In this document: positions 5,506 to 40,269 of the stretch, one piece after another
Layout of the letters: each line of letters starts with the position of its first letter
How positions within the stretch are numbered: the stretch's first letter is position 1
From: Myxococcota bacterium
GTDB taxonomy: Bacteria > Myxococcota_C > UBA6777
Length of the DNA: 64,000 nucleotides
Direction: 5' to 3'
Assembly (NCBI GenBank): GCA_023150835.1
Contig: JAKLKB010000018.1
Span: 1 to 64,000, forward strand
Made by a program: the position numbers and the translations under genes
Notes under the pieces: generated by a model
The model's input: the letters and a program-made list of their open reading frames with translations, nothing else
Databases searched by the model: none
Told to the model about the DNA's origin: nothing

Positions 5506-8169
5506 TTAACGACACGTCCCGTTTTGACAAAACTGACTCGACGAACATTGCCTCCCACAATATCCGCAGTTGGAGCGGTCGATGTTGGTGTTCACACAAG
5601 CACTCCCACAAACCTTCGTCCCATCGGGGCATTTGCACGAGCCACCGCTACAGATCTGGTTCGTATATTGGTTGCATTGGTGCCCACAATACCCGCAGTT
5701 GAGCCGATCTGTATTCTTATCCACGCACGCACTGCTACACACGCTGTAGCCCGACGGACATTTGCACGAACCGCCATCGCAGATCTGGTTCGTATATTGG
5801 TCGCATTGCCGGCCACAGTACCCGCAGTTGAGCCGATCTGTATTCTTATCCACGCACGCATTGCTGCACAACGTATAACCCGAAGCGCAGGTGCATCGGC
5901 GCGAAACGCAGGCTTGGTTGATGTATTGTGTGCATCGAGACCCACACGAGCCGCAATTGTTCTTGTCTGTATCCAAGTCCACACAGGCCCCGCTACACTC
6001 GGACATACCCGTAGCACACCGACAATTTCCGCTGCTACAGCTATATGTCGAGCGACACGGGCTATTGCACGCCCCGCAATGATTGGGATCTGTCGAGCGA
6101 TTCACACAAACGCCCGAACATTCGGTCATTCCAGTTGCACACTTACAGTATCGGTTTTCACAGATCTTTGCGCCTGTGCAAGCTTTTCCGCAGCTTCCGC
6201 AATGATTCGCGTCGTTGCTTAGGTTCGCGCAAATGCCTGAACAATCGCTTGTTCCGCTTGGGCACGTACAATAACGACTGCTACAGATCTTTCCACCCGC
6301 ACAGGCTTTTCCACAACTTCCGCAGTGGCTTGCGTCGGTCGAAAGATCTACGCAAACGCCCGAACATTCGCTTGTTCCACTTGGGCAACGGCAATACCCA
6401 CTCACGCAAACTTTGCCTCCTGCGCAGGCATTGCCACAACGGCTACAATGGTTTGCATCTGCGCTCGTATCGACGCAAACGCCGCTGCATGCGGTCATTC
6501 CGCTTGGACAAAGGCAGCTTCCGTTCTGGCATATATAAGAAGCCTGACAAGGTTTGTTGCATCCGCCACAATGACGCAGATCGCTTTGTGTATTGATGCA
6601 ATTGCCACCGCAAGGCATCGTCCCTGTAGGACAAGAGCATACGCCCTTTGTACAAACGAGACCCAAAGCGCACGGACGGCCGCAGCCTCCGCAATGTTGC
6701 GTGTTGGTTTGCGTATCGACGCACGAAGATCCGCAGATCGTCGGCGATCCGACGGGGCAGTTGATCACGCACTTTCCGTCTGCGCAGCGTTCCCCCGACG
6801 CGCACGCGAGACCGCATCCCCCACAATGCCGCGCATCGGTCTTTGGATCGATGCACTGTCCGCTGCATAGGCGTTGTTCAGACAAGCACTCTGCTTGGCA
6901 CGTCCCTTCACGACAACGCTCCCCTGTCTGGCAAGCGCGCCCACAAACCCCGCAATGACGGCCATCTGTGCTTAACAACACGCACTGGCCGCTGCACACG
7001 GTTTGTCCCGTCGGACAGCGGCAGACGGCCTGTTCACAGTTCTGCCCTCCTGTGCAGCGTTTGTTGCACGACCCACAATGGTTTGGGTTGGTCTGCGGAT
7101 CGACGCAGCCTCCTAAACACAACAGCGGCGTACCTACGGGACATTCCGCTTGACATTGCCCCAGCGCACACACGGATCCTTGCGGACAAGCATTGTTGCA
7201 ACCGCCACAATGCGCCCGATCATTGGCGATATCGATGCAACGGCCCGCACAGGCTTGTTGTCCTGTAGGACATTGACAGCGGCCTTGTACGCATCGGCGA
7301 TCTTCGCTACAAGCGTTTCCACACGACCCACAATGCGCTGCATCCGTTTTGATATCCACACAAGCCCCTAGACATACCGTTGGCGTGGCATCGGGACAAG
7401 ACGAAACGCACTGTCCTCCCGCACAAAACCGACCTTCCGCACAAGCCGCTCCACACGCCCCACAATTTTTCGTATCCGTCTGGAGATCCGCACAACCCGT
7501 CGTGCAAGTCTCCAACCCCGACAAGCACGCACAACGGCCTTCTTGGCACACTTGGCGCGGTAGGCATGTACGACCACATGCGCCACAATGTACTCCATCA
7601 CTTTGCAGATCCACACAATCATTCCCGCAACGTTCGGGAGTATCGCGTGGACAACCTTGGCACACGCCCCCCACGCAACGCTCCCCCACACCACAAGCTT
7701 TTCCACAGCCCCCACAATGCGCTGCGTCACTCTGCGGCTCGACGCATCCGCCTGCACACGCCAACGGGCGATCCGTTGGACAGCTTTGGCCTGTACAAGC
7801 TCCACCGACACAGGGCTGATCGGCTGGACACGCTTTCCCACACGCCCCACAATGCGACGTATCCACCGCAAGATCCACACATCTCCCCGAACAATCGACC
7901 TTTCCAACTGCGCAGCCGCAGCGCCCCGCTTCACACGTCCCACCCTCCTCACAAGCCACTCCACACGCCCCACAATGCGCGGGATTGCGCAAAAGATTCA
8001 CACACACGCCCTCGCACTCTTCCCCACCCTGCGGGCAAACGCACACCTCTCCCACACAGACCCGCCCCCCCTCACACTCCGAATGATACCGACAAGACTG
8101 TTGATTGGGTGCTGTACACGCCACATATCCCCACATCACCGAGGCCAGAAGGATCATCCAACGCAGCAT
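5506..8169 (-). CDS. Large Cys-rich repeat lipoprotein (MXAN_6577/Stigma1-like, about 20 repeats)
   Basis: Lipobox YVAC; repeated CVD-x3-D-x2-HCG-x-CG-x2-C units. Confidence 0.92.
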   Translation of the reverse strand: MLRWMILLASVMWGYVACTAPNQQSCRYHSECEGGRVCVGEVCVCPQGGEECEGVCVNLLRNPAHCGACGVACEEGGTCEAGRCGCAVGKVDCSGRCVDLAVDTSHCGACGKACPADQPCVGGACTGQSCPTDRPLACAGGCVEPQSDAAHCGGCGKACGVGERCVGGVCQGCPRDTPERCGNDCVDLQSDGVHCGACGRTCLPRQVCQEGRCACLSGLETCTTGCADLQTDTKNCGACGAACAEGRFCAGGQCVSSCPDATPTVCLGACVDIKTDAAHCGSCGNACSEDRRCVQGRCQCPTGQQACAGRCIDIANDRAHCGGCNNACPQGSVCALGQCQAECPVGTPLLCLGGCVDPQTNPNHCGSCNKRCTGGQNCEQAVCRCPTGQTVCSGQCVLLSTDGRHCGVCGRACQTGERCREGTCQAECLSEQRLCSGQCIDPKTDARHCGGCGLACASGERCADGKCVINCPVGSPTICGSSCVDTQTNTQHCGGCGRPCALGLVCTKGVCSCPTGTMPCGGNCINTQSDLRHCGGCNKPCQASYICQNGSCLCPSGMTACSGVCVDTSADANHCSRCGNACAGGKVCVSGYCRCPSGTSECSGVCVDLSTDASHCGSCGKACAGGKICSSRYCTCPSGTSDCSGICANLSNDANHCGSCGKACTGAKICENRYCKCATGMTECSGVCVNRSTDPNHCGACNSPCRSTYSCSSGNCRCATGMSECSGACVDLDTDKNNCGSCGSRCTQYINQACVSRRCTCASGYTLCSNACVDKNTDRLNCGYCGRQCDQYTNQICDGGSCKCPSGYSVCSSACVDKNTDRLNCGYCGHQCNQYTNQICSGGSCKCPDGTKVCGSACVNTNIDRSNCGYCGRQCSSSQFCQNGTCR

Positions 8170-8410
8170 CTCGCAACCTCTCAATCGCCTCAAAAAAGCC
8201 TCTCATCGCCTCAAAAACACCCATCCCACAAACATGGACAGACGCTTCAGTCGCCTTTGTTCGCTGCAACCGCCGTGTTTGCTTCTCAAAACCAACCGCC
8301 CAAAAACACTAACCTTTTCGATCTCGACGCGTCAAGCACACGACGCGCTGTCCGATCCTCTATGACTCCTGTCTTCTCCCCCTTGTCTCAGCAGTGTGTT
8401 CTTCCCCTCC

Positions 8411-8564
8411 CTCCTTCCGCATCGCTCGTTTCGATCGTAATCGGTCACGAAAACGAGACAAGCGGTTTGACGACCTCCTTCCGCATCACTCGTTTCAATA
8501 CGTTGAGCTGTCCCCACACTCACATCCAATTCCGCCTCCCACCTTCCGCATCGCTCGTTTCGAT
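8411..8564. repeat. Three 25-bp direct repeats separated by unique 39- and 40-bp spacers
   Basis: C(T/A)CCTTCCGCATC(G/A)CTCGTTTC(G/A)AT at 8411, 8475 and 8540. Confidence 0.85.
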
Positions 8565-8632: not shown

Positions 8633-8750
8633 TACGAAATATACCTATTATGTGATCAGCTTATGTAGGGGCAGCCCCCTGTGGCTGCCCGACCGCAGGG
8701 GGCTACAGCGGATCACACCTACGCTTCGATCACACTCCTCTCGGATATCA
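8633..8750 (+). mobile_element. Degenerate family-B MITE/REP copy
   Basis: TACGAAAT...GTAGGGGCAGCCCCCTGTGGCTGCCC...CGGATATC. Confidence 0.65.
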
Positions 8751-8853: not shown

Positions 8854-8882
8854 TTGACAAAGTGGTCGTACTCTTCTATTTT
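8854..8882 (+). promoter_or_regulatory. Putative sigma70 promoter of the three-gene GTPase operon
   Basis: TTGACA-17 bp-TATTTT. Confidence 0.55.
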
Positions 8883-9066: not shown

Positions 9067-11073
9067 ATGAAAGACACAGAAGGCTCCATATTTAACATCG
9101 AAAACATCGGCGTCGCGCTTGTTGTTTTCGTGGTTGGTTGTTTTGGCTTGTGGTTGTACTCCAACAAATCCATGAACGCTGAGATAGATCCAACCCATTC
9201 TTCCGCTCAAAAAGAGCCTCGCTCGCAACCTCCGCTCACCCACTCCCATCGAGAAAAAACAGCAAACATCGAAAAACAACCTCTTGTTGCTCTTTCTCCA
9301 TCCTCCCATGCCTCACGCCCTTCAAAACAACCCACGATAGCACTGAACCCAACAACTCCCAGACCAAACAACTCACTCTACCCAGAACTACAAAACTGCT
9401 CTGCCTCGAACCGAGAAACTCTACTCCGCCTACCCGCCTCCGTTCTTTCCGATCTTCAAAAAAAACAGCGCCTCAATTGGTTGGTGCGCACAATAGACAC
9501 GATGACCCCGCAAGCCCTTGCGTTGTTCCAAAAAAACCCTTGGAATCTACCCTTTTTGCTTCTCTCAGACGCCGACGCAACCTTCCGTGTACTTGATCGA
9601 TACGGCTACAGAGCGTGGCGCTTACTCTCGATGTTGGATTTTCGCTCAAGCTCCATCGAAAAAATGTCGAAAGCCATCGACCGTTTTGGAGAGATCGTCC
9701 TTGATATCGGCGAACAACACGGCTTGGCTTTCGCGCTCTTCTTTGTCTCAAAAGCAGAAGATCAAAAAGCCTGTTTACCGAGCCTTTTGTACAAAATGAT
9801 CCGCTCATTCCGAAAAGTGGAGCCTCGCCCTCAAGATGGAACCTCTCAAGCCTTGGCGTTATGGCTCCAAAACCATGACGATCTCCAACAACTTCTCACC
9901 GAGAAAAATGTCCTGTGCGAGGCATTCGATCTCCCGATCGAACTCCTTTCCAACGCCGCATCCATCGTGCGCAGCACAGCTTCCGATTCTCCTTTTTCCA
10001 TGCGCTTTTTGCTTGAAAAAGACCACAACAACCACCACACCGGCCTTCATCTATTAAAAACATACGGGCCACTCGCCGCAAGCACCCTCTACGGGCTGAA
10101 TTACCACCTCGACGAAGACGAAAAACGCGGCGCACTCGTTGTGATCAAACATCGGGGCTGGGATGGACTTTATTTGCTCAACCGATTCCATGAACTCTCC
10201 TCTTGGCGCACACTCCTCAAAAGGAAAGAACTCTACCAAAGCGACACAGCCCCTCTTCTCGCACAAATGATCCACACCATTTTTACTTCTCAAGATCCCA
10301 AACAACAAATCGACCTTTTTTCGAGGATCGGGCGGCTTGAGATTATCGATCGTCAAATCCCTCCTGATCTCACGGACAAAGCACTCGGATGGGTTCCCGG
10401 ATATTCTCTCGCAGCCAATCTTTATCGCTCGACCGCCCGAGGCCACCAGATCAGCGCATCCACGTATATCGCATCCGCTGTCGATGTCATCCCCTACGTA
10501 GGCAAAGTCGGGAAAGTCGGGAAGATATTAACAAAAGGTGGAAAGGGACTGGTGAAAACAATTTATCATACAAAAAAATCCAACGATTACTTCCATCATA
10601 TCAAGAAGCTTATTCCACAAAGTATCCTTCTTTCTTTATCAGAATCGAAAGAAAAAGGCGCAAAGATATTCAACGTCATCCAGCACAAAGCCATCCGACA
10701 GCTAAAAAAACGCCACCCTGCTTCTTTCAAGGCCGCTTTGCCGCTGCTGCTTCGACAACATCTCCTTGAACAAAGCACGCACTCGCTCAAGATCAGCCCA
10801 GCCCCTCAAGGACTTTTTCACCGTATATTGTATTTTCATCAACAAATCCCTGATCTCGCAGCTCAAGCAGTTCTCAAAGCAGCTTCTGGCTTTTCTTCTC
10901 TCGGCATCCGAACTTCTTCATTGCCAAAACCTCTTCGCGACTTGCCTTGGCGAGAAATGATCTCCAACAAGATCCAAGACAAAATACAACAACACTCCTT
11001 TTCGATGTTGATCGAACAAGCCTCTGCTCTCTTCCTTACCCCAACCCGCCCACAGGAGTCCTCGACACCCTAG
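9067..11073 (+). CDS. Membrane-anchored hypothetical protein with a pre-toxin-TG-like motif
   Basis: AGGAGG RBS; N-terminal TM; Pro/Ser linker; LGWVPGY...AVDVIPYVGKVGKVGK. Confidence 0.8.
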   Translation: MKDTEGSIFNIENIGVALVVFVVGCFGLWLYSNKSMNAEIDPTHSSAQKEPRSQPPLTHSHREKTANIEKQPLVALSPSSHASRPSKQPTIALNPTTPRPNNSLYPELQNCSASNRETLLRLPASVLSDLQKKQRLNWLVRTIDTMTPQALALFQKNPWNLPFLLLSDADATFRVLDRYGYRAWRLLSMLDFRSSSIEKMSKAIDRFGEIVLDIGEQHGLAFALFFVSKAEDQKACLPSLLYKMIRSFRKVEPRPQDGTSQALALWLQNHDDLQQLLTEKNVLCEAFDLPIELLSNAASIVRSTASDSPFSMRFLLEKDHNNHHTGLHLLKTYGPLAASTLYGLNYHLDEDEKRGALVVIKHRGWDGLYLLNRFHELSSWRTLLKRKELYQSDTAPLLAQMIHTIFTSQDPKQQIDLFSRIGRLEIIDRQIPPDLTDKALGWVPGYSLAANLYRSTARGHQISASTYIASAVDVIPYVGKVGKVGKILTKGGKGLVKTIYHTKKSNDYFHHIKKLIPQSILLSLSESKEKGAKIFNVIQHKAIRQLKKRHPASFKAALPLLLRQHLLEQSTHSLKISPAPQGLFHRILYFHQQIPDLAAQAVLKAASGFSSLGIRTSSLPKPLRDLPWREMISNKIQDKIQQHSFSMLIEQASALFLTPTRPQESSTP

Positions 11074-11130
11074 CAACAAGCCGTCGCCATCCAAAAGCCT
11101 GCGGCTTTAACACATCGGAGTCAACAACGC

Positions 11131-13797
11131 ATGACCTCGCAAGTTTCGGGCGCTCCAACAACAAACCATCCACAGACCTCCTCGAAACAAGCCCCACAAC
11201 GTAATTCCTCATCGCGAATTGAGCGATTTCTCGGGATCTTTGGCCCCAAAGCCTCAGGCAAAACTGTTTATCTTACCGCGCTGTATAACCTCAATATCTT
11301 TTCTCAAGAAGACGAATTCACCTTCCATCTCTCCGTACCCGACGGCCATTCCACGCATAGCTACCTCAAAAGGCGATGGCAACAAATGGCCCAACACCGC
11401 CAATGGATAGACGCGACCGAACTCCGCGCCCCCGAAGAGATGCTTTTCAACGTCACATGGCAAGATCCACAAGGTCAGACACGCGATTACCGTGTCGTCT
11501 TACCCGACGCTTGCGGTGAATTAATGGATCGTGCTGAAGAATACTCAAAAACACAACGCTCCAATATCCTCCAATTGCAGCTCAAAGAGGACTATTTTCG
11601 ACAACTCAAGCAAAGTCACGGTGTAGCGCTGTTTATCCCCGGCAACTTAGCACCACAATCCTCCGAAGCAGCCGAGCTCAAACACGCCTTCGATCCCTTG
11701 TTCGACGCTCTCAAAAGAGAACGTGATCAACAGGGCATCAAGCAACCCATCGCCGTCATCGTCACGATGTGGGATATCCACTCTCCCTACCCACAAAACC
11801 ACGCACAAGAAGAGCAAAAAGCGCGAGATTATATTCGCTCTGTGCTAGGTCATTTCGTAGAAGACTTAGAACAACTCGCCTCAAAAGACTTCGTAAAAGT
11901 CTTTCCTATCTCGTCCACAGGCCCACTCCAACCCACCCTCCCACATTCGTTCGCCCAAATACAACACCTTCCTCCTCCCATTCAATTCCGACCCTACCGC
12001 ATCAAAGCCCCCATCCATTGGCTTTTGTCTGCCTATGAGCAGCTCTTACTCGAAAACAGCGAACGCGCCTACGAAAAAGCCATACAACGCCCCAAACTCA
12101 GCCAACTCACCGAGCTAAAAAAACAAATCAACTCTTCTCTCCAAGAACTCGCCCCTTCCCCCCAAAAAGATCGGCTCGAACACATCTCCGATCAGGTTTC
12201 CGACCTTGTGCTTGCTCTCCAAAAAAAATCTCGCAGGAGAAAGTTCTTTTCTACGTTTGTTCTGCTCGCTTTATTGAGCGGCGGCGTCGCTCTCTGGGAT
12301 AAAGCTTTCGAGAAAAAAGCTATTTCAATAGCAGATCAATTTCTTCAAGATCCTAAAACCACGCAGATGCAACGCATCGAAATCCTTAAACATCTCTGCT
12401 TACGCCGCCCACTTCCCACGCAATCGATCTTTGGCTGCTGGCAAAGCATCACTCTCAAAAGAACCCATGTCATCCAGTCTGGTGCTTCGGCGGGCTGGAA
12501 AGAGCTTCTTCCTCTCCCTTCGGAACCTTCTCTTTCTCAATTGCAAGCAAGGATCAACGAACTAGAAACATTCTTACAAGTTTATCCAAACGTGCCTGAA
12601 TCAACACTTGCGAGACAACAATTAGCACAAGCAAAAGGAAACTTCGTGCAAAAAAGACAAGCCGAACAACGCCTTCATTGGAGCCGCTTCCTTGCACAAG
12701 CACAATCCGCCCACACCACTGTCGAACTGGAACAAGCGACAAAAACTTGCCGCGATCAATTCCTTGAAAAAGAAGAATACGCTTGGATGAAGTTGCAGAT
12801 TTCAGAAATCTGCAATCGACTTCGTGTAAAAATGCAGCATCAAAAAGAAGGAACAGCGGTTTTAAGCAAATTGAATGAGATAAAAACGAAAATCGCTCAA
12901 GACAGCCAAAATACAAGTCTTTGTATTAAAGAAACAGGTGATTTTTTGATCACTTATCCACGAACTCAATTTTCCGAAGAGGTCAAAAAAATCCAAGACG
13001 ACTGCAAAAAGAAAGAAGACGAAGGATACTGGAACAAACAAGTGGCCTTATACAAACAAGAAAATCCGACAGAATATCGAAAAATTATTAAACGCGCAAA
13101 AGAATATCTTCAAAACCCGCAATATAAAATCTATACACAAGAAGCAAGATCTCTCATCCAAAAAACCGAGAGCGAATGGGATCGCAGCCAATACCAACAA
13201 ATACAAAATAACTGGCAAAACAACCATTCAAAGCTTGATGCGGCAACGATCGATCGCATCCACACAAAATGCGAAGAATACATCGCAAACGCACCCACTA
13301 AACAAATGAAAACAGCCATCGAAAACTGGCTTCGGTGGCATAAGAAACTGCGTTCCGGCATACAGTTCAACCTTGTCATCGAAAGGATCCGTATCGGAAC
13401 GGAATGGTATAGCCGCCTTCATTGGCCGGATGTTGTTGTCTCTGTCAAAGTCGGCACACAAGAAAAAAAGTCCGAAGAATTTGTTGATCTGAGAGTCGAA
13501 ACCGAATATAGCAGCAACGAAGACAACCATTTGGTGACAAAAAAGCAGTTGCCGCAAACGTTGGGCCCCTTTACGTGGCGCTACGGCAGCGATGATATCA
13601 CCGTTCGTATGCTCAACACAGAGATCACCCAAGCATACGAAAAATCACAAACCGCAAACACAGAGAAATACAACATCTCCTTTTTGCGAGGACAAGTCGC
13701 TGTTCAGTATGGATTTTATATCCATGCTCGCATCGAACCCGTATCCTCCGAAGACCGCACACCAAACAGCGCCATCTTCCCTGACTACAACGACTAA
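11131..13797 (+). CDS. TRAFAC P-loop GTPase (double-GTPase-like) with TM helix and large C-terminal helical plus beta domain
   Basis: G1 GPKASGKT, G2 T (DATE), G3 DACGE, G4-like TMWD, G5 PISS; TM FFSTFVLLALLSGGVALW. Confidence 0.85.
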   Translation: MTSQVSGAPTTNHPQTSSKQAPQRNSSSRIERFLGIFGPKASGKTVYLTALYNLNIFSQEDEFTFHLSVPDGHSTHSYLKRRWQQMAQHRQWIDATELRAPEEMLFNVTWQDPQGQTRDYRVVLPDACGELMDRAEEYSKTQRSNILQLQLKEDYFRQLKQSHGVALFIPGNLAPQSSEAAELKHAFDPLFDALKRERDQQGIKQPIAVIVTMWDIHSPYPQNHAQEEQKARDYIRSVLGHFVEDLEQLASKDFVKVFPISSTGPLQPTLPHSFAQIQHLPPPIQFRPYRIKAPIHWLLSAYEQLLLENSERAYEKAIQRPKLSQLTELKKQINSSLQELAPSPQKDRLEHISDQVSDLVLALQKKSRRRKFFSTFVLLALLSGGVALWDKAFEKKAISIADQFLQDPKTTQMQRIEILKHLCLRRPLPTQSIFGCWQSITLKRTHVIQSGASAGWKELLPLPSEPSLSQLQARINELETFLQVYPNVPESTLARQQLAQAKGNFVQKRQAEQRLHWSRFLAQAQSAHTTVELEQATKTCRDQFLEKEEYAWMKLQISEICNRLRVKMQHQKEGTAVLSKLNEIKTKIAQDSQNTSLCIKETGDFLITYPRTQFSEEVKKIQDDCKKKEDEGYWNKQVALYKQENPTEYRKIIKRAKEYLQNPQYKIYTQEARSLIQKTESEWDRSQYQQIQNNWQNNHSKLDAATIDRIHTKCEEYIANAPTKQMKTAIENWLRWHKKLRSGIQFNLVIERIRIGTEWYSRLHWPDVVVSVKVGTQEKKSEEFVDLRVETEYSSNEDNHLVTKKQLPQTLGPFTWRYGSDDITVRMLNTEITQAYEKSQTANTEKYNISFLRGQVAVQYGFYIHARIEPVSSEDRTPNSAIFPDYND

Positions 13798-13945
13798 ACA
13801 CGCGTATGCCTCTTTCACTTTTCCCAATGCTACGACAAACGATATGCACACCAAGGAGAAGCTTGCAACATCCAAGAGACCCAACCAACCCGCGATCCTC
13901 TTTTCAACAACCACAACGCTCCAACAAACCAAGGACGAAACCTTC

Positions 13946-15457
13946 ATGCAAACACCAAAAGAAAACCTCTCACTCCATTCAACGCCAGACTCAAATATAC
14001 CACCGCTCTTTGTTCGTACATGGTTCAAAGAAAAAGGCAGCGTTTATCTGCACAACCAGCGTTGCCCAACAGACATCGCACCGAAACTTTATGAGGCGTT
14101 GGACAAACAAGCAAACGAATCTCTCGCGGCAGAAAAAACATGGAAAAAATGGATGGATTTCAACACTTTTTCAACGTTCGTTTTTTCTCAAAGGCTCCCT
14201 GATCCGAACGCTCCGAATCGCCATTTCACGCAACACCTCGTCGCCATCATGCCCTCAGAGACCGATCCCGCTCTGCTCACGCCCGTCATTTCGACGCTAT
14301 CACTGCCGACCGATGCCAAAGAAGCCGCCCGACTCGGATGGATTGAATTCCAACCCCCTTCTCCGCCAATTCCTCCAGCCAAGCCATCTCCTCCCGCCAA
14401 GAATTATCGTAACTGGCTGTGGAGTGGCGCACTGCTTTTTCTCGCTGCTACTTTGTTATTCTTTGGTTTTCCTAATTATTTGAGGCGATGGTTGGGAATA
14501 GAGAAGGCAAACAAAGCCAAACATTCTGAAGTCTCTCAAACAGATCATCGTTACTGGGAGTGTTCGTGGAAAACCTTTAGCGGGAAAGAGAAGTGGACGG
14601 GCAGCAGCACCGATGACCAAAGTGACAACCAAAAAGTTTGGGACAAAAAAACGACAGACGTGTTGGGCGAATTCAAAAAATTGATTAAAACAAAGGACAT
14701 AGAAGATAAAATTAAAGAGAAAATTGAAAAAGATGACACAGATAAAAAAGATGACACAGGTAAGAAGTCATTAAAGAACGAATGGGAAGAAAAAAGAAAG
14801 CAGGCTACTAAAGAAATTCACAACTGGCTCGCCGAAAATAAAAAAGGAAATAAAAAAGGAAATAAAAAAGGAAACAAAACACAAGAAAAGAGCAAACTCC
14901 AAAGTGAGCTTGAACATCTGCTCTTTCCGAAACCGACAACGAATTCAAAATCAACCAACAATCATGCAAATTATGCAGAACTCAAGCGTTGCATCGAATC
15001 AGCAAGAAGACGAAATATAACGAATTTTCAAGCCTTTTTAAAAAATGAATCTCCCTTTGAAAAGAACCCCGGTGACTTGGAGGACAAACCTAGAGAAAAC
15101 CGCAAACCTAGAGAAAACTACAAAAATTTTGGGAAAGAATGCGGATGTCCAGAAGACCCGATCTCCGGCATAGAAAAATGCGTTCTCGACAAACACCGCA
15201 AACCTGCTCCAAAGATCATCGCAGCCGAGATCCGAGATCGTGTGTTGCGCTATTACAAAAATCAGTGGGATCGATGCGCAAACACCCACAAAGCCCCCAC
15301 AGCCCCAAGATCCCCGAGTAGCCCGAAGGATACAAAATCCCCGAGCAACCAGAAAGGTGCGACAGCACCGAAAGACACGAAAGCCTCACCATCTCCGAAA
15401 GATCCAAAAGCCTCGCCATCCCCAGCCAAGGCACCGCAACGCCCCCCATTGCGTTGA
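13946..15457 (+). CDS. GAP1-N2-like N-terminal domain, Pro linker, TM and Lys-rich C-terminal domain (alternative start 13844)
   Basis: RLPDPNAPNRHFTQHLV motif; PPSPPIPPAKP linker; TM WLWSGALLFLAATLLFFGF. Confidence 0.7.
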   Translation: MQTPKENLSLHSTPDSNIPPLFVRTWFKEKGSVYLHNQRCPTDIAPKLYEALDKQANESLAAEKTWKKWMDFNTFSTFVFSQRLPDPNAPNRHFTQHLVAIMPSETDPALLTPVISTLSLPTDAKEAARLGWIEFQPPSPPIPPAKPSPPAKNYRNWLWSGALLFLAATLLFFGFPNYLRRWLGIEKANKAKHSEVSQTDHRYWECSWKTFSGKEKWTGSSTDDQSDNQKVWDKKTTDVLGEFKKLIKTKDIEDKIKEKIEKDDTDKKDDTGKKSLKNEWEEKRKQATKEIHNWLAENKKGNKKGNKKGNKTQEKSKLQSELEHLLFPKPTTNSKSTNNHANYAELKRCIESARRRNITNFQAFLKNESPFEKNPGDLEDKPRENRKPRENYKNFGKECGCPEDPISGIEKCVLDKHRKPAPKIIAAEIRDRVLRYYKNQWDRCANTHKAPTAPRSPSSPKDTKSPSNQKGATAPKDTKASPSPKDPKASPSPAKAPQRPPLR

Positions 15458-15546: not shown

Positions 15547-16614
15547 TCACACCAGCACTTCCGCCAACAAAGCACACAGCCCGTGAGGCGTGGCCTCCTC
15601 TTTGTCTGTGAGAGCGAAGCGCAGCCCCGCTTGGTGTAGGTGATGTTGTGCTTCTTTGCTTGCCCGCGCCAAAACGGAACGCACCTTGTAGGCAGAGACG
15701 GTCTGCGTAGACAGCCCAGCGAGCGCCTTCCAGACCACCGAAGCAGCCCGATAGATCCGCAAATGATCGCGCCACACACAAGCGTCCCCTTGTTCTTGCG
15801 GATCCAAAAATCCCCACCAACGGGGGTGATCCAACGCATATCGCTTCGACGGATAACGGCGTTTGCCTCCTTCGATCCCGTACGACTGCAACATCCCCGT
15901 CCTTTCGAGATCGCTCAACGCCAACAAGATACCCCGTTCGGTATAGCCCGAATATCCGGCGATCTCTTTGACCGTACACGTTTCCTGCATCAGCAGCGCC
16001 AACAGCACCTCTGCTTTGCATCCCATCCCCACCAGATGACGCAACAAAAAACGTAATCCCGTCGATGCGTTGGCTAGATGCCCCCCAAAAGGTGCTGATC
16101 GCAGAACAAAAGCGCCACGCAACCAACCATACCGAAGAAATATCGGATCGGTTTCTCCAAAAATGGGCAAAGATGTGCCGTCTTTGTTCAAAAACAAAGG
16201 TCGTGAAACAATGACATTTATGTCCGTAAAGCTCGCTATTTTCTCCCAACGCTTTTGCTTTCCCTGCTCAACCACAACAGACGCAAAGGCTCCTGCCAAC
16301 GGATGCAAGTCTTTTTCTTCTTGCTCTTTCAACAAAGCCTGAAGCCGTGAGACATCGATCTCATCGCCCGCATAACAACACCACCGCAGAACTTCATCAA
16401 AGATCCGTGGCTCCGTTCGCCCCCACCGCCACGTTGAAAGCAACATCACTTCTGGATCGACAACAACACTGTTCGCCTCCACAGAGCGAACACCCGAAGA
16501 AATGCCTCCCCATCGCTCAGCGAGCGAAGCAACAAGATCTTTCGTAAGTTTTTGTATGGCCTGTAATACTTCTTCTTGATGATCGTACTTAGCCTCTAAG
16601 TTCATTTGCAACAT
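15547..16614 (-). CDS. DUF6036-associated protein with C-terminal winged HTH (putative antitoxin/regulator)
   Basis: VDPE..EPRIFDEVLRW motif; HTH TVKEIAGYSGYTERGILLALSDL; overlaps the upstream gene. Confidence 0.75.
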   Translation of the reverse strand: MLQMNLEAKYDHQEEVLQAIQKLTKDLVASLAERWGGISSGVRSVEANSVVVDPEVMLLSTWRWGRTEPRIFDEVLRWCCYAGDEIDVSRLQALLKEQEEKDLHPLAGAFASVVVEQGKQKRWEKIASFTDINVIVSRPLFLNKDGTSLPIFGETDPIFLRYGWLRGAFVLRSAPFGGHLANASTGLRFLLRHLVGMGCKAEVLLALLMQETCTVKEIAGYSGYTERGILLALSDLERTGMLQSYGIEGGKRRYPSKRYALDHPRWWGFLDPQEQGDACVWRDHLRIYRAASVVWKALAGLSTQTVSAYKVRSVLARASKEAQHHLHQAGLRFALTDKEEATPHGLCALLAEVLV

Positions 16615-17179
16615 CCATGAATCCCAAAAGGTCCAAGAGTTCCAGCAACATTTGCTTGTAGCCTTCCGATGGATCGTGTGTCATCGACCATAACGCTGCT
16701 GCTTTTAACTCGCCTGCGTTGGGTTCCAATAACCTCAAATCATCCAAATGCTTACCAACACCCGAATCCACCGTTGCGTACAACTTGAAATGGATCTGAT
16801 CATAGCGGCTCAGAAAACGAACTGTCAGTAGCGCTCCGTATACTCGAACCATGCAACGCTCCAACAAGCCCTCAGGCAGTCCTAAACGTTGGTTCTCCGC
16901 AGGCCCAGCATTCAACCAATCTTTTGGCAACCCGTCATCCTCCGCCACACGCTGCACCGCTCGCAGCAAAGGTTCCGAAAAAGGTTCGGGAAAACAATCT
17001 TTGCCCCCCACGACTCGCGCAACGACATCCACATCCCGCGTCGCACGCTCCACCAAGCCGAGTACTTGCAAACCCGCGCCACCACAAACCACCAAGTCCA
17101 ATCGCTCCGCACCTTCCAATTCCAACGCGTCTGCCAAATGCTCTAATTGCTCGTGTATTTGCTTTGCTTCGGAAAACAT
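16589..17179 (-). CDS. DUF6036/AbiEii-like nucleotidyltransferase
   Basis: VVCGGAGL, RATRDVDV, WLN, KL..KHLDDL motifs. Confidence 0.85.
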   Translation of the reverse strand: MFSEAKQIHEQLEHLADALELEGAERLDLVVCGGAGLQVLGLVERATRDVDVVARVVGGKDCFPEPFSEPLLRAVQRVAEDDGLPKDWLNAGPAENQRLGLPEGLLERCMVRVYGALLTVRFLSRYDQIHFKLYATVDSGVGKHLDDLRLLEPNAGELKAAALWSMTHDPSEGYKQMLLELLDLLGFMDVANELRG

Positions 17180-17229
17180 CGCCACGCCTCCATCCGCTGC
17201 TTCGCTCTCAAACAACATCCACCCCGATC

Positions 17230-17305
17230 TTCTTTATAAAGAATAAAATGTGCTTCTGTAAAGAATAAAATATGCCTTTGTAAAGAACAAAATATACCTT
17301 TACAA
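17230..17305. promoter_or_regulatory. AT-rich 22-bp-period repeat and palindrome array upstream of the NTase gene
   Basis: TAAAGAA(T/C)AAAAT x3; perfect palindrome TTCTTTATAAAGAA at 17230-17243. Confidence 0.65.
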
Positions 17306-17321
17306 ACAAGAGCGGTACAAC

Positions 17322-17464
17322 AAAGACCCCACACAGTTGCCAAAAAAAGCCGTGTTCGCGCTATTTCAAGCGGCGGTGCTGTTTGTTTGAAAGGCGAATG
17401 ATCACCCCGCCGATACGGGGTCAAGGGGCGACAGTCCCTTGCGGGGTTTGGGGCAGCACCCCAT
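17322..17464 (+). mobile_element. Family-A MITE-like repeat
   Basis: AAAAAAGCCGTGTTCG...ACGGGGTCAAGGGG...CCCTTGCGGGG...CCCCA core. Confidence 0.8.
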
Positions 17465-17483
17465 CCTCTCGGATATCGTGGGA

Positions 17484-17597
17484 TACGAGATCCGCCCGTT
17501 GAGTTATCGTAAAGACGTAGGGGCAGCCCCCTGTGGCTGCCCAACGATCGGGCGTCTACGTGCTCTCTTTTGCTGCGTACATCACTCGGATATCGTA
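17484..17597 (+). mobile_element. Family-B MITE with terminal inverted repeats and internal GTAG-REP hairpin
   Basis: TACGAGATCCG ... CGGATATCGTA ends. Confidence 0.85.
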
Positions 17598-17634
17598 TTA
17601 TCCATAGCCTCGATCCTATCGGGAGATCTTGCAC

Positions 17635-18171
17635 ATGAACACGAACAAACAGCGGTTGCCAAGCAGCCAACGACTCACCCTGCGCCTCCTGAGCACAGGG
17701 GATCTTGATGCGGTGACGGCCATTTATCGGGACAACCGACGATTTTTTCAGTTGATTGCCGGCATCAATGAGCCGCCCGAAGAGTACATTTGTGCCGAGA
17801 TGCAAGAGGGGCCGCTCGGATACGAAGACCACAAGCACTTCTTTGGGCTGTTTTTGCGTGAAAGTGGCGAGATGATCGGAGTTGCCGACTTTGTGGTCAA
17901 CTATCCGAGCGCAGGCAAGGGGATCTTCGGATTGCTGTTGTTGTCAGAACAGCATCAGTCCGAGGGGTTCGGAACAGAGGCGGTGGGGCTAGTCGAAGCT
18001 TGGGCACGAGAAAGCGGTGCAACGAGCGAAGTCACCGTCGGCGTGGAGTGGGTGAACGAGCGAGCCCGCAGATTCTGGCGCAAATGCGGCTATCGCCCGA
18101 CAGGAGAGAGCTTTAAGACGACTGCTTTAGGGCGGACACATCAGGCGGAAGTACTTCTCAAGCAGCTTTGA
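17635..18171 (+). CDS. GNAT-family N-acetyltransferase
   Basis: QSEGFGTE acetyl-CoA motif; NERARRFWRKCGY. Confidence 0.9.
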   Translation: MNTNKQRLPSSQRLTLRLLSTGDLDAVTAIYRDNRRFFQLIAGINEPPEEYICAEMQEGPLGYEDHKHFFGLFLRESGEMIGVADFVVNYPSAGKGIFGLLLLSEQHQSEGFGTEAVGLVEAWARESGATSEVTVGVEWVNERARRFWRKCGYRPTGESFKTTALGRTHQAEVLLKQL

Positions 18172-18342
18172 TAGGGCTTACGCAGTTGCCCCCAAAAAAG
18201 CCGTGTTCACGCCACTTGAAGCGACAAAGTCGTCTGCGTGAAAAACCGTGATCTCTTCGCCAACACGGGGTCAAGGGGCGATAGTCCCTTGCGGGGCGTG
18301 GGGTTCCAACCCCACATCACCGGCCCAACCGCGAAAGTCTTG
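18172..18342 (+). mobile_element. Family-A MITE, near full length
   Basis: Left end AGGGCTTACGCAGTTG, degenerate right end CAACCGCGAAAGTCT, family-A core. Confidence 0.8.
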
Positions 18343-21727: not shown

Positions 21728-21838
21728 TACGATATCCGAGTGATGTGTACACGAAGGATCGTGCGTAGACGCCCTGCTTTAGGCAGTCACGGGGGGCTGC
21801 CCCTACATTTTGCGATTACACTATGGGCAGATTTCGTA
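21728..21838 (-). mobile_element. Family-B MITE
   Basis: TACGATATCCG ... CAGATTTCGTA; GGCTGCCCCTAC hairpin. Confidence 0.8.
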
Positions 21839-40156: not shown

Positions 40157-40269
40157 TACGGTATCCGAGTGATCTGTGATCGAAGGAGAGCGCCCAGACG
40201 CCCTGTGCTTGGGCAGCCACAGGGGGCTGCCCCTACATTTTTGCGATCACACAACGGGCGGATTTCGTA
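40157..40269 (-). mobile_element. Family-B MITE
   Basis: TACGGTATCCG ... CGGATTTCGTA; GGGCAGCCACAGGGGGCTGCCCCTAC. Confidence 0.85.

Follow-up and report, generated by a model that had tools for sequence, protein, structure and literature searches.

We analyzed a 64,000-nucleotide stretch of DNA from a Myxococcota bacterium (contig JAKLKB010000018.1, positions 1 to 64,000; here called the window) and found that three co-oriented, plus-strand genes at 9067 to 15457, designated g1, g2, and g3, are a real recurrent module whose second gene encodes a membrane-anchored member of the DO-GTPase family. In the window, this trio lies on an accessory island that has a low G+C content and no counterpart at the syntenic position in a genome of the same genus (G002). 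An earlier note on this DNA had described the genes as an all-membrane-anchored GTPase system with a possible role in conflict or in the cell envelope. Judging from sequence comparisons, we consider it about an even bet (probability near 0.5) that they are a horizontally acquired operon for a variant of the DO-GTPase conflict systems that lacks GAP1 and spans the membrane.

Matches to the g1 family were found at ten places outside the window. Two of these (G041:C550 and L060) were left out of the module count since the contig ends inside the gene, as was the weak match in G157; the latter (G157:C304, E 3.7e-6) is a HEAT-repeat protein encoded on a 6-kb contig that has no GTPase gene, and it is likely a false positive. 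At all seven remaining loci (L005, L011, L012, L056, L057, L058, and L059), a transmembrane (TM)-anchored DO-GTPase is encoded downstream of the g1-family gene. The GTPase gene is directly next in L059, where the three genes are 3 nt apart each; it follows one small gene for a protein with 1 to 2 TM segments in L011, L012, L057, and L058, and a weak g1 paralogue in L005. This GTPase is orthologous to g2 in five of the seven loci (L012, L057, L058, L059, and L011, the last by its G domain only in phmmer searches), and profiles recovered the g2 ectodomain and tail in these five loci and also in L048. All six loci that continue past the GTPase gene encode a single-pass protein next, with an N-terminal domain of 150 to 200 amino acids (aa). 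Three of these proteins match the N-terminal domain of g3 by phmmer (L012, E 3.8e-8; L057, 4.8e-5; L059, 4.4e-4) and a fourth can be aligned with it (alignment A5). For the downstream proteins of L005 and L011, a phmmer comparison with g3 gave no match. Of the module-bearing sequences, two are Planctomycetota genomes and four are metagenome contigs, the latter with a G+C content of 0.55 to 0.65. In addition, a full-length orthologue of g2 (P0004) and one of g1 (P0007) are each encoded on one 8,635-bp ENA contig, which is probably the same contig for both. This co-occurrence, in Planctomycetota and elsewhere, removes the objection raised in the earlier note that homologs of the three genes might not be found together.

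The module is sparsely distributed. The g1 family was matched in 3 of 401 Planctomycetota genomes, in one of them weakly, and the Pfam model DO-GTPase2 (PF19993) was matched in one of the six genomes of the host phylum. Those six species genomes, of 5 to 11 Mb each, are all that the collection searched holds for the phylum, and they represent three genera of one family, so there are very few close relatives in which to compare any gene family.

To place the trio in its genomic setting, we compared the window with G002. The two genomes share syntenic flanks that encode an amino-acid permease, a Stig1-repeat protein, an acyl-CoA dehydrogenase, and a PAPS reductase. Between the end of the Stig1 match (7618 in the window) and the start of the acyl-CoA dehydrogenase match (18350), however, approximately 10.7 kb of the window is replaced by 740 nt in G002. 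The accessory segment thus spans about 10 kb, with approximate limits at 8200 and 18340, and contains g1 to g3 together with minus-strand open reading frames (ORFs) at 15547 to 16614, 16589 to 17218, and 17143 to 17838. The G+C contents of g1, g2, and g3 are 0.485, 0.463, and 0.455, respectively, against 0.543 for the window.

The ORF calls and a Kyte-Doolittle scan agree with the description of three co-oriented genes with one TM helix each. The g1 gene (9067 to 11073, plus strand, 668 aa) lies in a frame that is open from 8935, and its most likely start is the ATG at 9067, which is preceded by a good ribosome-binding site (caggaggcagc). After 57 nt it is followed by g2 (11131 to 13797, plus strand, 888 aa). 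The third frame, read from its first ATG, spans 13592 to 15457 and overlaps g2 by 206 nt; since the g3 homologues begin just before a conserved VRTW motif, the likely start of g3 is the ATG at 13946 (13946 to 15457, plus strand, about 503 aa) or, alternatively, the one at 13844. The TM-like segments are at residues ~14 to 32 of g1, ~372 to 390 of g2, and ~157 to 175 of g3, the last numbered from the 13946 start. A sigma-70-like motif, TTGACA-17-TATTTT, which had been taken for the promoter of the operon, is present at 8854 to 8882 on the plus strand, 185 nt upstream of the g1 start. Sites of this type are as frequent between 8200 and 16000 as in shuffled sequence (6 found versus 5.3 ± 2.1 expected), so we count it as a motif and not as functional evidence. 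Three 30-nt repeat copies, 64 to 65 nt apart, are found upstream of g1 at 8406 to 8564.

RNA-library contigs from four runs on one activated-sludge sample span parts of g1 to g3 and bridge the g1-g2 junction. They are compatible with possible expression of the genes and are no proof of transcription; the bins without such contigs (7768 to 8535, 12760 to 13143, 14680 to 15063, and 15832 to 16983) carry no weight. Near-identical copies (95 to 96%) are also present in other metagenomes. Between 10270 and 12615, the RNA-library contigs of one sample show a variant of g1 and g2 that differs by ~2.5% (58 of 2,346 letters), with compensating 1-nt deletions and insertions at 12414 to 12429, which suggests that the locus exists in a second strain.

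The assignment of g2 to the DO-GTPase family comes from Pfam comparisons. The protein scored 39.4 bits against PF19993 (cut-off 27) over residues 32 to 233, and in the genome scans it scored 43.5 bits with this model and 28.5 bits, just above the cut-off of 27, with DO-GTPase1 (PF19975). It was the sole match to either model in this 93%-complete genome. We also found that the orthologous GTPases of the g2 clade are marginal on both models (24 to 41 bits), which places the clade at the edge of DO-GTPase1 and DO-GTPase2. All four GTPase motifs named in the earlier note (GPKASGKT, DACGE, the variant TMWD, and PISS) are found in g2, which also has an SSTG motif. Among eight aligned g2 orthologues (A7), residues G38, G43, K44, D126, G129, W214, and D215 are invariant, and the window copy retains the 23 invariant columns. 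The Walker B Glu of DACGE is retained in seven of the eight; a conserved Glu at this place is a mark of the DO-GTPase family (PMC7159879). The Lys of the G4 motif is present in six orthologues, as (T/S)KWD, and is replaced by Met in the window g2 and by Cys in one other. The N terminus of g2 has no Cys-rich stretch. A word-seeded search returned a single match to g2, the orthologue P0004, which is 33 to 35% identical over its full length, and a search of genome and metagenome contigs with the g2 alignment found no related loci.

Combining Pfam with an AlphaFold2 model (mean predicted local distance difference test score [pLDDT], 78.4), we divide g2 into a predicted cytoplasmic DO-GTPase domain (residues ~30 to 290), a helical linker that continues as a long helix into the TM segment, an ectodomain of helical hairpins (391 to 742), and a beta-sandwich (744 to 870). 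This organization bears out the helical repeats and beta-rich tail that had been read from the sequence, as does a motif, [FYW][LI]xxxP, that occurs three times in residues 391 to 742, a count reached by 1 of 2,000 shuffles. When the model was compared with solved structures, Foldseek returned BDLP, GBP1, Sey1p, mitofusin, and atlastin at E values of 3.7e-5 to 1e-3 and probabilities of 0.97 to 1.0, with TM-scores of only 0.13 to 0.17 of the query. VIA, which is independent of Foldseek, ranked YcjX first (PDB 6nz4; Z 14.9, root mean square deviation 4.3, 264 residues aligned); small GTPases came within 1 Z unit of it but covered only ~160 to 177 residues. Both lists were filled by matches to the G domain, and their results concern that part of g2. 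No Dynamin-family Pfam match was found in g2 at E ≤ 1. In a search of PDB sequences, the A7 profile found nothing at E ≤ 1 for YcjX, and the profiles A5, A6, A7, and A3 found nothing below E 0.05.

The g1 protein belongs to an anchored, all-alpha family that has no match in Pfam, PADLOC, or NCBIfam. Its TM segment is followed by a disordered linker (residues 34 to 102), an all-alpha region (~105 to 480) that contains the motifs CGPxAA, LLRR, and WVPGY, and a Lys/Gly-rich C-terminal region. Among 1.84 billion representative proteins, 31 relatives were found by an exhaustive phmmer search at E ≤ 1e-3, and none of the 19 that were scanned has a Pfam domain above its cut-off; the word-seeded search gave one match, a near-identical fragment. 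Alignment A2 of the family offered no stretch of sufficient conservation to look for related loci. The family has in common the N-terminal anchor, an all-alpha domain of ~350 aa with the three motifs, and a variable C-terminal part; some relatives have a second, C-terminal TM segment followed by Arg-rich tails. The earlier note had singled out the WVPGY motif, and this region is indeed conserved, with P444, Y446, and D473 nearly invariant in 25 g1-family sequences. The AlphaFold2 model of g1 has a pLDDT of ~79 to 97 over residues ~110 to 430. Foldseek assigned it no fold (TAL effectors and designed repeats came first, at E 0.04 and a TM-score of 0.12), and the best match in a wide VIA search (Z 6.4) covered only the hairpins at 436 to 576, so that the confident core at 170 to 430 was barely probed. 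Six of the 20 sequences in alignment A2 (P0015, P0017, P0018, P0023, P0024, and P0027) carry an insert of ~200 aa after the WVPGY region, which the window g1 does not have. At columns ~700 to 890 of A2, this insert contains a conserved RDGxR(V/I)xVxExKG stretch, like D...(V/I)xVVEAKG, and an EVVRTxH motif, in which a resemblance to a nuclease-type core can be seen by eye only.

The g3 protein had no match in Pfam, NCBIfam, or PADLOC, and the Atlas search with it gave no usable result. It consists of an N-terminal domain of ~130 aa (with the motifs VRTW..G and R.PDP..PNR), a Pro-rich linker, the TM segment, and a Lys-rich C-terminal region that is partly of low complexity and contains family motifs; 12-nt tandem repeats at 14836 to 14879 encode its KKGN repeats. 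A BLASTP match was obtained at 1e-7, and the word-seeded search again gave one match, a near-identical fragment. Homologues of g3 were located only beside g2-orthologous GTPases; they have in common the N-terminal domain (VRTW..G.GC and R.PDP..PNR), the TM segment, and the C-terminal motifs. The RLPDPNAPNRHF motif, with which the N-terminal domain had been said to end, is conserved, and P85, P87, and P90 are invariant in the five sequences of alignment A5.

To ask which parts of the three proteins face the periplasm, we compared the charge of the 15 residues on either side of each TM segment, using the positive-inside rule only. The N-side flank was more positive in 16 of 20 TM-bearing g1-family members (with the reverse in 1), in six of eight g2-family members (reverse in none), and in four of five g3-family members (reverse in none). 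On this basis, we infer that the G domain of g2 and the N-terminal domain of g3 are cytoplasmic and that the helical domain of g1, the stalk and beta-sandwich of g2, and the C-terminal region of g3 are periplasmic. This agrees with the large extracytoplasmic domains predicted in the earlier note, since the bulk of g1 and g2 would be outside the membrane across the families, and the three proteins may form the trans-envelope complex that it proposed. A complex prediction for g2 (residues 25 to 365) with g3 (1 to 150) scored 0.00 against a mark of 0.32; the fold of g3 is uncertain, and this result is neutral on binding.

The published conflict systems built on DO-GTPases are defined by GAP1 in addition to the GTPase, and we asked whether a GAP1 component is present. 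Searches with GAP1-N1 and GAP1-N2 (PF20012 and PF20013) at E ≤ 1 to 10 found no match in g1 or g3, whether whole or split into halves, and the genome had none at E ≤ 1. The GAP1-N2 model is otherwise productive, with matches in 27 of the 401 Planctomycetota genomes. The module-bearing genome G343 has no GAP1-N2 match, and G041 has one only on another contig. When the N-terminal domain of g3 (5 sequences) was aligned by hhalign with GAP1-N2 (28 sequences), three motif blocks fell in the same order, with a probability of 1.35%, a P value of 0.038, and a score of 18.0 compared with 10.6 ± 2.0 for column shuffles, of which 1 in 150 reached the score. Scans with PF19993 and PF19975 found no second GTPase in the genome. 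Thus, with no GAP1 detected, the locus is not a GAP1/double-GTPase ternary system as PMC7159879 defines it. The view that it is a single-GTPase variant of such systems stands as far as the GTPase goes, which is above the family cut-offs and the only one in the genome; the GAP1 part of that view found no counterpart in the locus or the genome.

The reading of the trio as a GAP1-less conflict system takes into account its accessory nature, the conservation of the module, the membership of g2 in the DO-GTPase family, the predicted topology, the fold, the possible expression seen in the RNA-library contigs, and, at one locus, the presence of defense genes. In G343 (L011, 8851 to 15015 on G343:C39), the module copy is directly followed by a complete set of ZacA, ZacB, and ZacC (PADLOC E values of 1e-125 to 3e-303; Pfam matches to DUF6361, PLD-like, and helicase), which PADLOC lists as candidate defense genes. 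In such a conflict system, the periplasmic parts would sense an envelope event, such as phage attack or damage to the wall or membrane, and this event would be relayed across the membrane to the G domain, which would serve as a nucleotide-dependent switch. The G domain would probably dimerize, as has been proposed for DO-GTPases and is known for dynamin-like G domains, and the N-terminal domain of g3 would hold the place of co-regulator that GAP1-N has in canonical systems. Since no cytoplasmic enzyme is encoded, the output would most likely be at the membrane, where permeabilization or remodeling could abort infection.

Several points weigh against a conflict function. Neither GAP1-N1 nor GAP1-N2 was detected, as described above, and the likeness of the g3 N-terminal domain to GAP1-N2 is not significant. 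No recognizable effector domain and no PADLOC match were found for g1, g2, or g3. The defense-island context is that of one locus only, the neighbors of the trio in the window having only sub-threshold nucleotidyltransferase (NTase) matches. The replacement of the G4 Lys by Met could alter nucleotide binding in g2. The topology comes from the positive-inside rule only, as applied to the families; the TM flanks of the window's own g1 and g3 are uninformative. The conflict role of the DO-GTPase family is itself a computational prediction (PMC7159879). Finally, a fusion of ABC_tran and MlaE domains is encoded directly upstream of a TM-anchored DO-GTPase at L043, L044, and L047 and at L048, whose GTPase belongs to the g2 clade; such neighbors point to lipid or envelope work rather than defense.

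The last point leads to a rival that deserves serious weight, although we regard it as less probable than a conflict function. The trio could be an accessory module for envelope stress or lipid handling, in which the GTPase, together with its periplasmic partners, would control or drive the upkeep of the inner or outer membrane, as proposed for YcjX-type GTPases and for the DO-GTPases of psp operons. The anchoring of all three proteins in the membrane is consistent with this, as are the ABC_tran-MlaE fusions, the finding that two related GTPases end in a C2 domain, and the rank of the stress GTPase YcjX as the best structural match to g2; PMC11237479 describes a DO-GTPase-family protein in psp operons and a link to membrane stress, citing YcjX alongside the DO-GTPase paper. 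However, envelope housekeeping fits poorly with the patchy spread reported above for the phylum and for Planctomycetota, with the low G+C content of the segment, and with its absence from the syntenic site in G002, and no ABC or MlaE gene is present at the window locus or at seven of the eight g2-clade loci whose neighbors could be seen. An accessory module for envelope adaptation, as opposed to housekeeping, is possible.

A more far-reaching reading, which we put forward tentatively, is that the trio is a new kind of transmembrane GTPase switch. In this reading, a cytoplasmic GTPase cycle would be mechanically coupled through a single TM segment to the ~500-aa periplasmic stalk and beta-sandwich of g2, and it would work with a periplasmic alpha-solenoid, g1, and with g3 as a bitopic co-regulator in place of GAP1. 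Upon attack on the envelope, such a switch would pass a signal through the inner membrane or work on that membrane itself, and it would do so with no classical effector enzyme.

We consider it improbable that the trio is a contact-dependent or secreted toxin system, in which g1 would resemble a polymorphic toxin with a pre-toxin module and a C-terminal cargo that varies, and in which release of g1 would be under the control of the GTPase. What can be cited for it is the ~200-aa insert in the six g1-family members, as read by eye; SseC-like matches in 3 of 25 members, the best of which (E 4.9e-4) was under the cut-off; and the Atlas result for g1, in which a PT-TG cluster came at rank 7 with a sub-threshold score of 0.79, of a kind that is common for shuffled proteins. 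In contrast, the PT-TG model itself (PF14449) had no match in g1 (P0001) at E ≤ 1, nor did any of 25 members of the g1 family match it at E ≤ 10, so that the pre-toxin-like partner suggested in the earlier note found no support. Moreover, the insert-bearing members have no match in Pfam, PADLOC, or PDB sequences, and there is no recognizable secretion-system or immunity gene near the trio. A decaying or inactive remnant, with a pseudo-GTPase module kept by chance in the island, is the least probable account: the TMWD variant of G4, the Lys-rich, repeat-bearing C-terminal half of g3, and a g1 N-terminal flank whose charge departs from the family rule would fit it, but the frames are intact over 668, 888, and ~503 codons, the other G motifs and the invariant columns are retained, and both the copies in other metagenomes and the RNA-library contigs over the genes speak against it.

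Other features of the neighborhood were recorded alongside the trio. Next to it, the earlier note had placed a toxin-antitoxin-like pair; the minus-strand ORF at 16589 to 17218 does give weak NTase-like scores, for DUF6036 (22.9 bits; cut-off 23.6) and AbiEii (20.7 bits; cut-off 22.5), but both are below their cut-offs and the ORF has no PADLOC match. A 26-nt palindromic element resembling repetitive extragenic palindromic sequences, GTAGGGGCAGCCCCCTGTGGCTGCCC, occurs in the window at 8665 to 8690 and 17517 to 17542 and, on the minus strand, at 21781 to 21806 and 40211 to 40236. The 7.56-Mb genome contains 462 copies of it with two or fewer mismatches, often in short arrays, and none when the element is read backwards; RNA-library contigs pile up on it to depths of 70 to 650. 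We rejected 29-nt repeats at 8665 and 17517 as borders of the island because they are part of this element, and an apparent joint in the RNA contigs between 8689 and 17516 has the same cause. Additional repeats are three 22-nt tandem units at 17237 to 17302 and a block of ~120 nt duplicated 850 nt apart (17340 to 17462 and 18191 to 18312). Upstream of the segment, a minus-strand gene at 5506 to 8193 encodes an 895-aa protein built from 14 Cys-rich repeat stretches of the Stig1 type (PF04885, E 2.4e-94); pieces of this protein match many places in related genomes. The GC skew is strongly negative across nearly the whole of 1 to 64000 regardless of gene strand (C 0.319, G 0.224), with values per 2 kb mostly of -0.1 to -0.37.

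We found no description in the literature of the g1 and g3 partner families or of an anchored trio that lacks GAP1, though the supplementary tables of PMC7159879 may list the architecture. The DO-GTPase family and its link to membranes are already published there. Among the predicted conflict systems of bacteria, those built on DO-GTPases rank with the larger ones, and the literature we found mentions them only computationally. The locus described here is a compact, three-gene form without GAP1, and it supplies sets of orthologues, structure models of g1 and g2, and a topology prediction. It opens questions about the role of DO-GTPases, about how a GTPase switch might be wired across a membrane to periplasmic sensors, and about whether such modules serve immunity or envelope maintenance.

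Compared with the DO-GTPase/GAP1 systems of PMC7159879, the trio has the same GTPase family, the Walker B Glu, and a conserved partner gene directly downstream, and it shares their occurrence in Planctomycetota and their sporadic, accessory distribution. For systems of the GAP1-N2 type, that paper also describes TM segments and, beyond a TM that follows the G domain, extracytoplasmic domains. Two paralogous GTPase genes are present in 38% of DO-GTPase systems and are not obligatory. What differs here is that no GAP1 (N1/N2, M, or C), GASH, or FNIII component was detected, GASH and FNIII being absent from the Pfam matches of g1 to g3 at E ≤ 1 (the GASH accession was not looked up separately), and that the only GTPase has neither Zn ribbons nor N-terminal TM segments and comes with no recognizable effector or effector-associated domain. 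The two partners, in turn, come from families without a Pfam model. PADLOC-DB 2.0 has no family that matches g1, g2, or g3 at E ≤ 1, and the type VI secretion components TssM, TssL, and TagF and the virulence factor Srf are not among the Pfam and NCBIfam matches of the three proteins at E ≤ 1, which sets aside the concern that they belong to one of these characterized systems.

Among solved structures, YcjX is the best match to the G domain of g2. YcjX is a soluble protein whose partner is a separate membrane protein. In contrast, g2 has its own TM segment and an ectodomain of ~500 aa, and its A7 profile has no match to YcjX among PDB sequences at E ≤ 1. With the dynamin-like GTPases (BDLP, LeoA, atlastin, mitofusin, and GBP), g2 shares its anchoring in the membrane and a G domain that long helical bundles follow, a likeness that suggests nucleotide-driven dimerization and action on membranes. 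It differs from them in that its helical region would lie across the membrane from the G domain, in the low TM-scores, and in the lack of a Pfam dynamin match.

The closest likeness in gene order is to cousin operons of Planctomycetota at L043 (5068 to 13267, G217), L044 (4756 to 12332, G049), and L047 (4829 to 12958, G139). These five-gene operons differ from the trio in having the ABC_tran-MlaE fusion gene and a small fifth gene for an anchored protein, in GTPases that match g2 only at the family level, and in anchored partners with no detectable sequence similarity to g1 or g3; in a phmmer comparison, g1 matched neither the 544-aa nor the 766-aa anchored proteins of the cousin loci. Genomes G217, G049, and G139 have no GAP1-N2 match in the same sample. 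Long TM-anchored DO-GTPases that end in a Pfam C2 domain are encoded at two further Planctomycetota loci (L045, 7721 to 10510, E 1.6e-4; L049, 5619 to 8945, E 9e-8), a hint that the tails outside the membrane in this wider group may bind lipids or membranes. The order of the shared elements is the same in the cousin operons as in the trio, with a large N-anchored protein (544 aa in the five-gene operons), a TM-anchored DO-GTPase2 of ~900 to 960 aa, and a single-pass protein of 334 to 421 aa, and the association of an anchored DO-GTPase with a MlaE-type ABC fusion bears directly on whether such modules act in immunity or in the envelope.

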